Shown here: piece by piece, positions 10,016-19,802 of the stretch | How positions within the stretch are numbered: position 1 is the first letter of the stretch | Layout of the letters: each line of letters opens with the position of its first letter | Assembly: GCA_958295525.1 (NCBI GenBank) | Contig: OY282355.1 | Location: forward strand, 485,763-549,762 | DNA length: 64,000 nucleotides | Source: an uncultured Dehalococcoidia bacterium | GTDB taxonomy: Bacteria > Chloroflexota > Dehalococcoidia > Lucifugimonadales > Australimonadaceae | Direction: 5' to 3' | Translations under genes and position numbers: made by a program | The notes under the pieces: generated by a model | Told to the model about the DNA's origin: nothing | The model's input: the letters and a program-made list of their open reading frames with translations, nothing else | The model's database searches: none

Positions 10016-12187
10016 GTGTCTGAGACAAATCATCGTCAACTGCGGAGGACGCCGGCGCGCTTATTTCGTTGGTCGCTGGCGGCGGCGCTGGGCTTCGCGG
10101 CCATTGCCGCCGTTGCTTGCTCCGGCGCTCCGCCCACTCCCACCGCCGCGCCGCCGCCTACCCCCACGCCGTCGCCCACTCCCACCGCCGCGCCATCGCC
10201 TACTCCTGCCGCCGCGCCATCGCCTACTCCTACGCTCACGCCTACCCCCGCGCCTACGCTGTCGGCCGACGCCACGCCTGCCCCAACCCCTACGCCGAGG
10301 ATCATAGCCTCGCTCGCCACGCCCGCAGACGTTGCGGTGGACGCCGCCGACAGACGGCTCGCCGTATCGTGGAGCCCGGTCGAAGGCGCGACGGGCTACA
10401 AAGTCGCGGCCAGGCTGAAGAACGGCGTCGAACCGTTCGCGTGGACGGAATACGAGGCGGCGTCTCCCCCGTACGTCTTTACGGACAATTGGGCGGCGAT
10501 GAGCGGGCTGGAGTACGAGGTTCGCGCCGCCTCCGTCAGCGCCGAAGGGCAGTCCGAATGGTCTGCCCCGGTTGCCGTGACGGCCCCTGAACTCCGCCAA
10601 GCCCCGGCCGGCGCACTTCATATTCGCCATCGCAAGGATTCGCTCGTGGTGGGCGACCTGTTGGGTGTTAGCGTGTTCGACCAGCGGCCGCTCACTCGCA
10701 GATCGCGGTACGTTTGGTCCGTATGCGGCGCGGACGGGGCGGAATGCGAACTATTGCCTCTTGTTGACCGCCTGTCTTACTCGCTCTTCGTTCCCGCCGC
10801 GGCGCGCGGGAAGCGCGTGCGGGTTCAGGTGGACTACGACAAAGACGGCGCGTCCTTCACCGCAACTGCGGTCGTGGGAGACATCAGCCCCGACGGGCCG
10901 ACCGTGAACTTGCCTGCGGGGTGCGAGGAAGCGGAGCCGCCCACCGGCGCGGACAAGTTCACGCCAGGCGACGATCTCGCTACGCATCTGCTCCTGCTGG
11001 AGTCGAAATCGGTTCCTGTCGAGTGGGACGATGCGCTCGGCGGAGCGGTTGAGCCTCTGTGCAACGACCTGTTGGTCGTGACGCCGTGGGGAAGAATAGC
11101 CCTCGCGCGTCCGAACGGGGACGTGGAGCCGGTTGAGGGGCAAGTTCCGATGAACTTGGAAGCCCTGCTGTCGCAGCCGGACCTAGCAACCCTCAGCCCC
11201 GACAGGTTCCGCGTCGCCGACGCACTGCTCAAGCAGCATACGGAAGAACGCTGGGAGTTGTTCGTCACGCATCACTATTTCACAGGGGAGTGCAACCTGT
11301 TCCGTTTATCCGCCACGACGATTCTTTTGGAAAGCGGGACGCCTTCCGTATCGCCGTCATGGAGAACGGTCTTTGACGCTGATCCTTGCTTGCCTCCTTA
11401 TGACTTCAGAGGGGATCGGGCCGGCGGCAGAATCTTGACGGACGGCCCCGACCATCTGTTGGTCGTGGTCGGCGACCACGGCTGGATACAGACGGGCACG
11501 GAGACCGATGCGGAGACTGGCGAGAACAGGCAAGTTTGGGCCGCTCAGGATCCGAACTCGCACTTGGGCAAACTCGTTCGGATCGCAATCGAGGCGGGAG
11601 AAGCGGATATGCTTGCTCTCGGTCTTCGGAATCCGCAAGGTTTCGCGCGAGACGGCAACGGCAACCTATGGGCGACGGAGCACGGGCCCCGAGGCGGAGA
11701 CGAACTGAACATCCTCGAACCCGGCGCCAACTACGGCTGGCCCATTGTAAGTTATGGGGCGCCATACGTCAGATACATCCCTTTCTCTGAAAGAGAGACA
11801 TTAGGCGCGCATGAAGGCTTCGCCAAGCCCCGCTTCACTTGGGTTCCTTCCATCGCCGTTTCGGCCGTCGCAGTGAACGACAAGCAATGGTTCCCTCTAT
11901 GGAGAGACGACTTGCTCATCGGTTCGCTGGGGCATCCCGAACTCGGGCGCTCGCTCTTCCGTGTCCGGCTCGACGGAACGGACGTTCAGTACGTTGAGCG
12001 CATTGAGGTGGGCTACCGCGTCCGTGACCTGACCTATATGCCGGATGGACGCATAGCCCTGCTCGCCGACGAGGGCCGCGTCCACTTCATAAGCCCCTCC
12101 TATGAGCCTTGCAACGACCGGACGGAGGAACGGAGGCGCCGGGAGTTCCTCATCTACGCGATCGCCTGCGGCGCCATAGGGCGCTAG
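10016..12187 (+). CDS. Lipoprotein: PT linker + FN3 + PQQ-type glucose/sorbosone dehydrogenase propeller (copy 1, no cytochrome c)
   Basis: Lipobox AVAC; FN3 (VSWSPVEGATGY..YEVRA..SEWS); GLRNPQG, EHGPRGGDELN, GANYGWP motifs. Confidence 0.8.
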   Translation: MSETNHRQLRRTPARLFRWSLAAALGFAAIAAVACSGAPPTPTAAPPPTPTPSPTPTAAPSPTPAAAPSPTPTLTPTPAPTLSADATPAPTPTPRIIASLATPADVAVDAADRRLAVSWSPVEGATGYKVAARLKNGVEPFAWTEYEAASPPYVFTDNWAAMSGLEYEVRAASVSAEGQSEWSAPVAVTAPELRQAPAGALHIRHRKDSLVVGDLLGVSVFDQRPLTRRSRYVWSVCGADGAECELLPLVDRLSYSLFVPAAARGKRVRVQVDYDKDGASFTATAVVGDISPDGPTVNLPAGCEEAEPPTGADKFTPGDDLATHLLLLESKSVPVEWDDALGGAVEPLCNDLLVVTPWGRIALARPNGDVEPVEGQVPMNLEALLSQPDLATLSPDRFRVADALLKQHTEERWELFVTHHYFTGECNLFRLSATTILLESGTPSVSPSWRTVFDADPCLPPYDFRGDRAGGRILTDGPDHLLVVVGDHGWIQTGTETDAETGENRQVWAAQDPNSHLGKLVRIAIEAGEADMLALGLRNPQGFARDGNGNLWATEHGPRGGDELNILEPGANYGWPIVSYGAPYVRYIPFSERETLGAHEGFAKPRFTWVPSIAVSAVAVNDKQWFPLWRDDLLIGSLGHPELGRSLFRVRLDGTDVQYVERIEVGYRVRDLTYMPDGRIALLADEGRVHFISPSYEPCNDRTEERRRREFLIYAIACGAIGR

Positions 12188-12280
12188 AATGGCGGCGCGG
12201 CGCTCATCGCCCTATGAGCGCGCTTTGGGCGGCAAGGCATTGCGTTGCATCAAATAGAACATTTGCACCAGGGGGTAACC

Positions 12281-17592: not shown

Positions 17593-17765
17593 CGGACGCG
17601 GCTAGGTCTCCAAGCGGCGATAGCGCGGCGCGGCGCCCAGCGTTGATCCGCGAACGGCAAAGAGCGCTAGAATGGCGGCGCGGGTGATAAGCGCCCTATG
17701 AGCGCGCTGCGGGCGGCAAAGGGGGTCCGTTGCATAAAATAGAGCATTTGCACCAGGGGGTAACC

Positions 17766-19802
17766 ATGCTCCTCCGGCGGCGCGGGGGGCGCGCGTTCCG
17801 TTCTTGGTCGACGGCTGTTGGTCTAAGCCTCGTCGTCGTTGCCGCCGCCGCTTGCTCCGGCGCTCCGCCTACTGCTACGCCATCGCCAGCCCCTACCCCT
17901 ACGCCTACTCCCACCGCCGCGCCTACGCCATCGCCAACTCCTACCCCTACGCTTACGCCTACTCCCACTGCTACGCCTACGCCTACGCCTACTCCTACGC
18001 TCATTCCTACTCCTACCGCTACGCCGACGCCTACTCCTACGCTCATTCCTGCTCCCACTGCCGCGCCGGCGCCTACTCCTACGCTCATTCCTGCTCCCAC
18101 TGCCGCGCCGGCGCCTACTCCTAGCCCAAACCGATTCCCTGCGCCTACGTCTCTACTCAGGGAACCGCAACCAATGGCTGTTTGTCCTAACGTCACGCCT
18201 TACCTTAAGACGCCATCCGATGAGTCGGCGAATTCCTTGGTGGCGACGCATCTTTACGCGTTGGAAATGGACAAGGTTGACCTCGACCGTTTCCACGTAG
18301 GCGGCGGGGGGCTGGATAGCATGTGCGACGACCTATTGGTGGTGACTCCGTGGGGGAGAATTGCGCTGATCGACCAAGATGGACAAGCCAAGTATCTCGA
18401 AGGCAATGTCCCAATGAACTTGGAGGGCCTGCAATCGCACCCTGACAGCGCAGACTTTCGCCCCGACAGATTCCGCGTCGCCGATATTTTGCTTAAGCAG
18501 CATTCGGAAGAGCGATGGGAGTTGTTCGTCACGCATCATTACTTCACGGGAGAGTGCATTAGGTTTCGGTTGTCCTCTACGACGGCGTTTCTTGACGGCG
18601 CATCCGTTTCCGTGTCGCCGTCATGGAGGACGATATTCGACGCGGAACCTTGCATGGCTTCCACATCCAGGTATGGACATCAGGCGGGCGGGAGAATTTT
18701 GACGGACGGGCCTGGCCATTTGTTGATTGTAGTCGGCGACCACGGCTGGGTATTCGTAGACGACATCATCGCTTCTCAGCATCCCGACTTGCATCTCGGC
18801 AAATTGGTTCGAGTGTCAATTGAATCCGGAGAGGCGGATGTGCTGGCTATCGGCCTTCGCAATTCGCAGGGATTCGCCATAGACGCGGACGGCAACCTTT
18901 GGGAGACGGAGCATGGTCCTCAAGGCGGCGATGAATTGAACTTGCTGGAGCCCGGCGCTAATTATGGTTGGCATCATGTCACCTACGGCGTTCATTACGG
19001 AGGAACTATCAACGTCGAGAATAAGCACGAGTTGGGGGGACACGAGGGCTATGAGCGTCCCGCCTTCGCGTGGGTCCCTTCCATAGCAATCTCCAGCCTG
19101 ATTGTGAATGACGAGCAATGGTTCCCGCTTTGGAAAGATGACTTGCTTATCGGTTCGCTGGGCGATGTTGAAAACGGCCGCTCCCTCTTTCGGGTCCGGC
19201 GCGACGGGACGGACGTTCAGTATGTGGAGCGGATTCCCGTCCGCGCGCGGGTGAGAGACATTGCGCGGATGCCGGACGGCCGCATAGCCATCCTGTCCGA
19301 CGAGGGCAGCGTCCTTTTCCTGAGCCGTTCCTACAGGTACTGCGACGAGGAGTCCATCAAGCAAAGGAATGCCTACTCGGTGGACTGCGAAGAGTTGACG
19401 GCTCTTCTCGATGCAAGCCAATCCGACCCCCAGGAGAACGGGGGCGCCGCAGAGACGCCGGACTCAGGAGACGAATCAGGCTCCGGGGAAGCAGCGACGG
19501 CCACCGGCGCGCAACTGTACGCGACGGAGTGCGCCGCTTGCCACAGACTCGACGCCGAGGAGCACGGCATAGGCCCGCATCTCGTCGGCGTTATCGGGCG
19601 GAGCGTCGGGCAGGTCGAGGGTTGGAATCTCTCAGAGGCGCTGCGCTCGCTCGGCGGCGTATGGACACGGGAAAGCCTCGCGCAATTCCTCGCGGCTCCC
19701 CAGGCGTTCGCGCCGGGGACAACGATGGGGTCGCAGGGGCTCTCCGAATCGGAGGCGGGCGCCATCGCGGACTACATCGCCGGTCTGCCTGCGCGGGAAT
19801 GA
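17766..19802 (+). CDS. Lipoprotein: PT linker + PQQ-type sugar dehydrogenase + cytochrome c (copy 4, no FN3)
   Basis: Lipobox [29 protein letters not shown] and CAACH motifs. Confidence 0.82.

Follow-up and report, generated by a model that had tools for sequence, protein, structure and literature searches.

Six-bladed pyrroloquinoline quinone (PQQ) dehydrogenases are known almost solely as small soluble enzymes, and the roles of their active-site residues are described by way of the soluble glucose dehydrogenase (sGDH) of Acinetobacter calcoaceticus. In that reference mechanism His144 serves as base, alongside Arg228/Asn229 and Arg406/Arg408, with Ca2+ held on backbone carbonyls (PMC6881789). 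The fungal pyranose dehydrogenase CcPDH joins an AA12 propeller to an AA8 cytochrome b and a CBM1 module (PMC6881789 and PMC4332668), and in a 2026 preprint, separate cytochromes c are modelled docking on bacterial six-bladed PQQ propellers and feeding a terminal oxidase, with a single sentence noting a heme-binding domain in some of these proteins (10.64898/2026.07.10.737718). Natural cytochrome c fusions of such enzymes are sought for mediator-free biosensors. Quinohemoprotein alcohol dehydrogenases likewise have a class I cytochrome c covalently joined to their PQQ domain for internal electron transfer, but they belong to an unrelated eight-bladed family (PF01011). Here we describe four tandem genes, g1 to g4, at positions 10016-19802 of the + strand of a 64,000-nucleotide stretch (the window) from an uncultured Dehalococcoidia bacterium (contig OY282355.1 of assembly GCA_958295525.1), which encode predicted lipoproteins with a propeller of the glucose/sorbosone dehydrogenase (GSDH) type and, in two copies, a fused class I cytochrome c.

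On balance we consider it somewhat probable that these are extracytoplasmic PQQ quinohemoproteins with diversified pockets, which would use scavenged PQQ and pass electrons via tethered heme c to a caa3 oxidase. The fold and the quinohemoprotein logic are already known; what appear to be new are the diverged subfamily, the stalk modules, the arrays of heme-bearing and heme-less copies, the variable loop at the classical His and the spread across phyla. The preliminary description of this DNA had put the array forward as an undescribed system. It is not a one-off, as it belongs to a large multi-phylum family that often occurs in arrays, but we found no paper on the architecture or the family other than the one preprint sentence, bearing in mind that supplements might list such proteins. 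The covered parts of that preprint mention no lipoprotein stalks, FN3/Ig modules or arrays (10.64898/2026.07.10.737718).

The closest solved relatives, as found with the family profile, are the soluble aldose sugar dehydrogenase Asd of E. coli (YliI; 2g8s, E = 7.5e-41) and the glucose dehydrogenase 7cdy (E = 8.8e-41). Like the window proteins, they belong to the GSDH Pfam family, carry R-N, EHGP-GGDE and R-x-R motifs and are extracytoplasmic; unlike Asd, the window proteins have an unconserved catalytic His, extra invariant His residues, a predicted lipid anchor, a stalk of Pro/Thr, FN3 and Ig elements and a fused cytochrome c, and the first two blades of their propellers are too diverged to align with either structure. 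CcPDH follows the same logic, its six-bladed PQQ propeller being accompanied, outside the cell, by a tethered cytochrome domain and by a spacer or binding module without catalytic activity. It differs in being a secreted eukaryotic protein of another propeller branch with an N-terminal heme b cytochrome, whereas the window proteins would carry heme c and be lipid-anchored. The proteins surveyed in the preprint were selected by nine PQQ-binding residues of the CcPDH type and an NERD, NGRD or HGRD metal motif, whereas the window proteins have the Asd-type HGPxGGDE, and HGPQ/HGPR...DE is not among the motifs listed there.

Modular architecture of the four proteins

The four translations share one plan, in which a basic N-terminus is followed by a hydrophobic stretch running to AVAC or AAAC, a Pro/Thr/Ala linker and then globular domains. 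We take AVAC/AAAC to be the lipobox. The genome encodes lgt (two copies) and lspA, all four proteins have the features of lipoproteins, and their predicted location is outside the cytoplasm. After the lipobox Cys come 40-130 residues rich in Pro, Thr and Ala, whose coding DNA is made of imperfect tandem repeats of 18-66 bp. At the protein level, g2, g3 and g4 are 75%, 69% and 57% identical to g1.

Open reading frames (ORFs) and Pfam agree with the preliminary description in giving four + strand paralogues with a lipobox, a Pro/Thr stalk and a GSDH propeller, and the module combinations listed there hold: FN3 without cytochrome c in g1, both in g2, FN3 with the cytochrome c deleted in g3, and cytochrome c without FN3 in g4. 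g1 (ORF 10016-12187) encodes, after its Pro/Thr linker, an FN3 domain (~10322-10579), an A9-type Ig-like domain (~10583-10915) and the propeller (~10975-12115; pocket motif G-D-R-A-GGR), and terminates directly after the propeller. g2 (ORF 12245-15049, likely ATG 12281) has the longest Pro/Thr linker of the array, with 66-bp repeats at 12405-12642, then FN3 (~12737-12997), the Ig-like domain (13007-13339), the propeller (~13427-14554) and, at ~14750-15037, a class I cytochrome c that bears CAACH and a Met ligand. In g3 (ORF 15146-17530, ATG 15269), FN3 (~15503-15754), the Ig-like domain (15758-16090) and the propeller (~16190-17290; G-L-G-A-GGS) are followed by a cytochrome c remnant at 17419-17527. 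g4 (ORF 17730-19802, ATG 17766) has a Pro/Thr linker, neither FN3 nor the Ig-like domain, a propeller at 18222-19409 (G-H-Q-A-GGR) and a class I cytochrome c at ~19500-19787.

These are the sole GSDH genes in the 2.51-Mb, single-contig, 96.5% complete genome. The Pfam GSDH family PF07995 is matched at E = 3.7e-46 (g1), 1e-42 (g2), 3.3e-45 (g3) and 3.2e-48 (g4), with 147-165 bits against a cut-off of 25, over profile positions 53-326 in g3 and g4 and from 111/112 to 326 in g1 and g2. A full propeller is likely in the window copies, because close relatives match the same model from profile position 5 or 13.

Stalk modules set g1-g3 apart from g4. In the whole proteins the fn3 model (PF00041) stays below its cut-off of 25 bits (20.6 in g1, 21.1 in g2 and 16.1 in g3), but the g1 segment scanned alone reaches 26.8 bits, and relatives reach 28-32 bits. 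Between FN3 and the propeller lies an Ig-like domain of ~100 residues that the preliminary description had overlooked. It matches no Pfam family at E <= 10 in any of the three copies, including no direct match to IG_AIR9 or SCAB-Ig, and a word-based search gave nine matches, all of them family members. A profile built from 12 such domains (the window and loci L001, L006, L010, L012 and L014) was run against 1.84 billion representative proteins and matched 317 proteins at E <= 0.001, 71 of them at E <= 1e-10; among the 150 top-ranked matches listed, many span 1000-7000 residues and contain as many as 19 copies of the domain. Five of the matched proteins were scanned with Pfam: three carry IG_AIR9 and SCAB-Ig, one carries IG_AIR9 and PKD, and the fifth, which has FN3 and GSDH, belongs to the present family. 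Judged indirectly, by profile similarity, the middle domain of g1-g3 is thus a diverged A9-type Ig-like repeat, since its profile matches multi-copy proteins labelled IG_AIR9 (four of the five scanned).

The cytochrome domains of g2 and g4 score 33.5 and 36 bits on Cytochrom_C (PF00034; cut-off 21.3), show CAACH and the PGTTM Met motif in alignment with c552, and qualify as class I. Their closest solved relatives are Paracoccus c552 (3m97, E = 6.6e-20) and Rhodobacter cytochrome cy (6xkx, E = 1.1e-24), which are membrane-anchored carriers serving terminal oxidases. In c552 and cy the tether is a transmembrane helix, whereas in the window proteins it is an entire dehydrogenase-like lipoprotein, to whose propeller the cytochrome is connected by an acidic low-complexity linker of ~60 residues. 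g3 retains the last ~33 cytochrome codons, and a single in-frame 258-bp deletion (equivalent to g2 14683-14940) takes out CxxCH. By tblastn, this type of cytochrome is confined in the whole genome to g2, g4 and the g3 remnant; Pfam gives six class I cytochrome c sites genome-wide, including subunit II of the caa3 oxidase.

Predicted cofactor site, variable pocket and possible electron route

Family conservation was read from a 123-member alignment, consisting of the best 120 matches minus alternative starts and near-duplicates of the window, plus the four window proteins and P0138; residues are numbered as in g4. The PQQ- and Ca2+-binding roles of the corresponding Asd/sGDH positions are described in PMC6881789. 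Few members depart from the motifs at these positions: R377 is conserved in 122/123, N378 in 123/123, H395 in 122/123, G396 in 122/123, P397 in 120/123, R507 in 113/123 and R509 in 122/123, and all four window copies carry the complete set (R-N, H-G-P, R-x-R). Of 50 polar positions conserved in at least 93% of members, 49-50 are kept in all four copies (all 50 in g1; 49 in g3, with a Ser to Thr change). Five His residues are near-invariant in the family, namely H269 (123/123), H270 (119), H338 (114), H355 (117) and H438 (123). In the alignments to Asd, H338 stands opposite N, H355 opposite L or Q and H438 opposite a gap.

Variation is placed differently. Entropy in the family propeller is highest in two segments, one running up to the classical His position (g4 residues 309-318) and one directly behind the GDHG motif (342-351). 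The paralogues differ at exactly those two segments, which we presume by analogy with sGDH to be substrate-face loops. The array would thus offer about three pocket variants (one in g1 and g2, one in g3 and one in g4), because the copies differ mainly in these two loops around the classical catalytic position. In line with the diversification proposed in the preliminary description, the paralogues have diversified at these predicted pocket loops.

Several results weigh against a PQQ quinohemoprotein assignment. The TIGR03606 model (non_repeat_PQQ) gives 47.7-58.1 bits, far below its cut-off of 434.55. The alignment to the Asd structures is limited to the C-terminal ~240 propeller residues, and the first ~150, used as a profile against solved structures, gave chance-level matches alone. 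sGDH is not among the sequence matches; neither its His144 nor its Lys377 is kept in the window proteins, the equivalent of the latter being Gly or Ser. The canonical catalytic His (in Asd GNH, in sGDH His144) aligns with g4 Q318; together with the residue before it, this position reads D-R in both g1 and g2, L-G in g3 and H-Q in g4, the canonical position itself being occupied by R, R, G and Q, respectively. Within the family, His occupies the canonical position alone in 14/123 members and solely the position one residue earlier, as in g4, in 45/123, while 22/123 have Asp/Glu one residue earlier, 41/123 show none of these states and 1/123 has His at both positions. The oxidation of sugars or glycans that had been proposed for the array is weakened as a reading, with the canonical His of Asd/sGDH in 0/4 copies and 15/123 relatives. 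Two of the four copies would also be without heme, g1 having no cytochrome domain and g3 having lost CxxCH. Finally, a search of the genome for pqq biosynthesis genes came back empty: pqqB and pqqC were not found, with the qualification that the pqqC control query matched no control genome, and the best pqqE match, a weak radical-SAM hit, scored 51 bits against a cut-off of 381. The genome likewise has no match to the eight-bladed PQQ enzyme family. Because no pqq genes were found, PQQ, if used, must be taken from outside the cell, as it is by E. coli Asd in an organism that is not known to have pqq genes of its own.

In the mechanism that we favour, the proteins would be lipid-anchored outside the cytoplasmic membrane, each with an Asd/sGDH-type six-bladed propeller borne on a flexible stalk of Pro and Thr that in g1-g3 would be lengthened by FN3 and the A9-type Ig-like domain. 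The propeller would bind PQQ and Ca2+ captured from the surroundings, given a genome without pqq genes, and would act on an extracellular substrate by oxidising it. The mitochondrial-type cytochrome c that g2 and g4 carry on an acidic linker would accept the electrons and hand them to the aerobic chain, with the caa3-type oxidase encoded at 57024-61975 (COX2 with fused cytochrome c, COX1, COX3 and CtaG) as the likely end point. The heme-less g1 and g3 would have to draw on the cytochrome of a different protein, for which the tethered one of an adjacent paralogue is a candidate. We infer from sequence only the use of PQQ, the direction and route of the electrons, the sharing of cytochromes between paralogues and the nature of the substrate; on the same footing, the family probably feeds electrons from outside substrates into respiration, and the route from tethered heme c to an aerobic oxidase that the preliminary description suggested is plausible. 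A more elaborate version is tentative, and we think it rather doubtful that all of it holds. It posits a modular extracellular electron-harvesting unit in which propellers with varied pockets, some of them heme-less, share a neighbour's swinging cytochrome c leading to caa3, in which the catalytic base has moved to a family-specific His and so freed the classical loop to vary with the substrate, and in which the cassette has spread horizontally among co-living phyla that draw on community PQQ.

All four copies are under purifying selection, and none looks free of constraint. The ratio of nonsynonymous to synonymous substitution rates (dN/dS) is 0.21-0.29 for the propeller in all six pairs (0.28 for g1-g3), 0.25-0.39 for FN3, 0.49-0.56 for the Ig-like domain and 0.16-0.35 for the cytochrome. 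These values bear on the other readings of the locus. A non-catalytic role of g1-g3, or of the family as a whole, in surface binding or adhesion, with FN3 and Ig presenting a lectin-like propeller, is quite unlikely. The FN3 and Ig-like repeats of g1-g3, the long multi-repeat proteins among the best 150 Ig-profile matches, the missing heme of g1 and g3 and the want of a His at the canonical or the preceding position in g1-g3 would all suit such a role, which had been offered as an alternative in the preliminary description. The fit is poor, however, in that every conserved cofactor-site residue is kept, the propeller evolves at a dN/dS of 0.2-0.3, a cytochrome c adjoins 25 of 33 propellers in other loci and g4, without FN3 or Ig, stands in the same array. 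A decay of g1 and g3 as duplicates, with g2 and/or g4 alone functional, seems improbable for related reasons. The clean deletion of the heme site in g3, the L-G pocket of g3 and the absence from g1 of a domain present in its nearest relative, P0018, are what decay might leave behind; set against them are the intact frames, the dN/dS of the g1-g3 propeller pair, the near-complete retention of conserved polar residues in both copies, the 95%-identical g1 counterpart P0139 that is also GSDH-only, and the recurrence of heme-less copies in the arrays of other phyla.

The remaining alternatives accept a redox function. Propellers with a different active centre, for example a metal site made of the family-specific His residues, with a cytochrome c partner and a non-sugar substrate, would account for five near-invariant His residues of which at least three have no His counterpart in Asd, for a classical base position that varies freely, and for a genome in which neither pqq genes nor an eight-bladed PQQ enzyme were found. 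We nevertheless judge this unlikely: the R-N, H-G-P and R-x-R residues for PQQ and Ca2+, kept in 113-123 of 123 members, are hard to explain without PQQ, and the extra His residues could be there just to provide a general base. Reverse electron flow, in which the respiratory chain feeds the cytochrome and the propeller reduces an outside substrate, is most improbable. The present evidence does not fix the direction and this type of cytochrome is a reversible carrier, but the characterised Asd, sGDH and AA12 enzymes are all known as dehydrogenases, and the potential of PQQ favours donation to cytochrome c.

Spread of the family and evolution of the array

The array belongs, by sequence similarity, to a large unnamed family whose members occur in metagenome-assembled genomes (MAGs) from seven or more phyla. 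Species-representative genomes were scanned and gave 597 relatives, the best 80 of which were kept. The relatives, at 44-58% identity, come from MAGs of Latescibacterota, Gammaproteobacteria, Alphaproteobacteria, Pedosphaera, Caldilineaceae, Vicinamibacteria and Gemmatimonadota, and marine communities associated with hosts commonly contain several of these lineages. In 200 sampled other genomes of the class, there was no match at E <= 1e-60. A midpoint-rooted FastTree phylogeny of 37 propellers places the window clade with a Latescibacterota locus (L014, support 0.992), and pairs Dehalococcoidia L016 with Latescibacteria L018 (0.99), Latescibacteria L024 with Gemmatimonadota L035 (1.0) and Vicinamibacteria L028 with Gammaproteobacteria L029 (0.995). 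Because these cross-phylum sister pairs are strongly supported, the tree points to horizontal transfer of the family between phyla.

Arrays elsewhere also mix heme-bearing and heme-less copies. Array members were counted with the propeller query in 27 loci, as low-complexity Pro/Thr linkers inflate ORF clustering (in L003, three of five clustered ORFs have no GSDH). The Latescibacterota MAG locus L014 has four tandem FN3-Ig-propeller genes with cytochrome c in the last alone; a cytochrome is present in both genes of L001 and in two of the three in L037, and the two genes of L023 stand in tandem, those of L017 ~5 kb apart. Among the 33 propellers outside the window that match over at least 300 residues, a cytochrome adjoins 25 and none adjoins 8. 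Most of the Dehalococcoidia copies examined have a lipobox, as does one member each from Latescibacteria and Gemmatimonadota, and several other copies examined have a signal or anchor sequence without Cys. No conserved neighbour genes were found across phyla, an MFS gene being linked to the array within the genus alone.

The copies of the window array differ by 2-50% along their length, and sliding-window DNA identity is mosaic. g1 and g2 are 97-98% identical at g1 11254-11554, g3 and g4 93-98% at g3 16371-16571, g2 and g4 94-96% in the cytochrome domain, and g2 and g3 ~90% over most of their length. This mosaic pattern of identity indicates repeated gene conversion among the copies. A conserved upstream region of ~110 nt on the + strand, 92-96% identical, precedes g2 (~12190-12280), g3 (15160-15268) and g4 (~17655-17765), and the sequence upstream of g1 is different; the duplicated unit would thus have carried its own 5' region, since this region is common to g2, g3 and g4. 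In a different assembly, the g1 counterpart P0139 shows 95% identity across the Ig-like region and likewise has no cytochrome c.

An assembly artefact is an unlikely explanation of the array, given the mosaic differences between copies. Four runs of a single sample yielded contigs that cover each of the 30 bins between 9000 and 21000 at >= 97%, although that sample may be the source of the assembly and so not independent, the contigs are short in the array and no listed contig bridges two paralogues. One contig in each of the four runs joins 10159, in the Pro/Thr linker of g1, to 20290, in the MFS gene, skipping 10,130 bases; the join has just 20 letters on its shorter side and could be explained by a chance repeat join or by a variant without the array. 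Composition was considered as a sign of foreign origin and rejected. GC content at third codon positions (GC3) is 0.66-0.75 in the array, lowest in g4 (0.66), against 0.85-0.92 in the flanking genes, but other window genes have 0.76-0.80 and g1-g3 lie near the median of a crude genome-wide ORF survey. A scan for promoters and terminators gave counts at chance level.

Hairpin repeats of 38-39 bp, similar to repetitive extragenic palindromes (REP-like), end the last two genes on the + strand: 2.3 copies at 17515-17601 contain the stop codon of g3, and 3.3 copies at 19787-19914 contain that of g4. In both genes the last residues (LPARE) and the stop lie inside the first copy. The unit occurs at least 72 times in 56 clusters of the genome (at <= 5 mismatches), and further ones seem to occupy the stretch from the MFS gene to ccmC (21195-21906).

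The cassette within the genus and its significance

GSDH is present in 22/22 genomes of the genus, and 19 of them have a single ordinary copy. The FN3/cytochrome family is carried by G000, G003 and G008 alone, and ordinary GSDH was not found in these three; the first, stricter count of family genes per genome is a minimum. This distribution fits a replacement of ordinary GSDH and the FN3/cytochrome family by one another within the genus, in which the related genomes are not independent samples. An example of the ordinary type, in G006 (L103 1328-2626), is a 432-residue protein without a cytochrome; it has a signal peptide, shows the canonical N-H-N-GG motif and carries a hydrophobic anchor at its C-terminus. 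At a further locus of G008 (L013; G008:C1:2178897-2180288, - strand) there is a third GSDH whose Pfam match starts at profile position 1, and the cytochrome c domain behind it shares 77-79% identity with the g4 domain; an ordinary-looking propeller can thus also carry a g4-type cytochrome.

Together with the adjoining MFS gene (MFS_3 transporter, 19915-21387, - strand; PF05977, E = 2.8e-49), the array is an accessory cassette in the genus, with four, two or one copies. The locus reads cupin, four family genes, MFS and ccm in G000; cupin, two family genes, MFS and ccm in G008; and cupin, one family gene and MFS in G003. In G001, G004 and G006, it consists of the cupin, a second cupin paralogue, ccmC and ccmA, with neither family genes nor MFS. 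The preliminary description had tied the array to nearby ccm genes and to an oxidase in the same window. Both are there, ccmC (22115-22888), ccmB (~22858-23506) and ccmA (23532-24275) lying on the - strand 2.3-4.5 kb off, but the nearness of ccm looks coincidental, because the array-less G001, G004 and G006 keep the cupin beside ccmC and ccmA.

Other genes of the window were noted in passing. The 368-residue bicupin adjoining the array (8798-9904, - strand) is part of a strongly expanded family, with 13-31 matches at E <= 1e-30 in each of the five genus genomes searched (G001, G003, G004, G006 and G008). Upstream of it on the + strand are two adjoining TreT-like trehalose synthase glycosyltransferase genes (5142-6413 and 6410-7717) and then a ROK-family kinase (7714-8694); the second TreT-like gene and the kinase have a GC3 below that of their neighbours. 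A 516-residue RCC1-repeat protein (46769-48319, + strand) adjoins a ZnuABC-type metal uptake operon (48238-51193).

The family is distinct in wiring a propeller to a mitochondrial-type cytochrome c, in its lipoprotein stalk, in its arrays of variable pockets and in its probable exchange between phyla. If the proposed function is true, small-genome bacteria that depend on PQQ without producing it would gain respiration on outside substrates, the family would be a case of relocation of the catalytic base within a known fold, and its members would be ready-made direct-electron-transfer enzymes.

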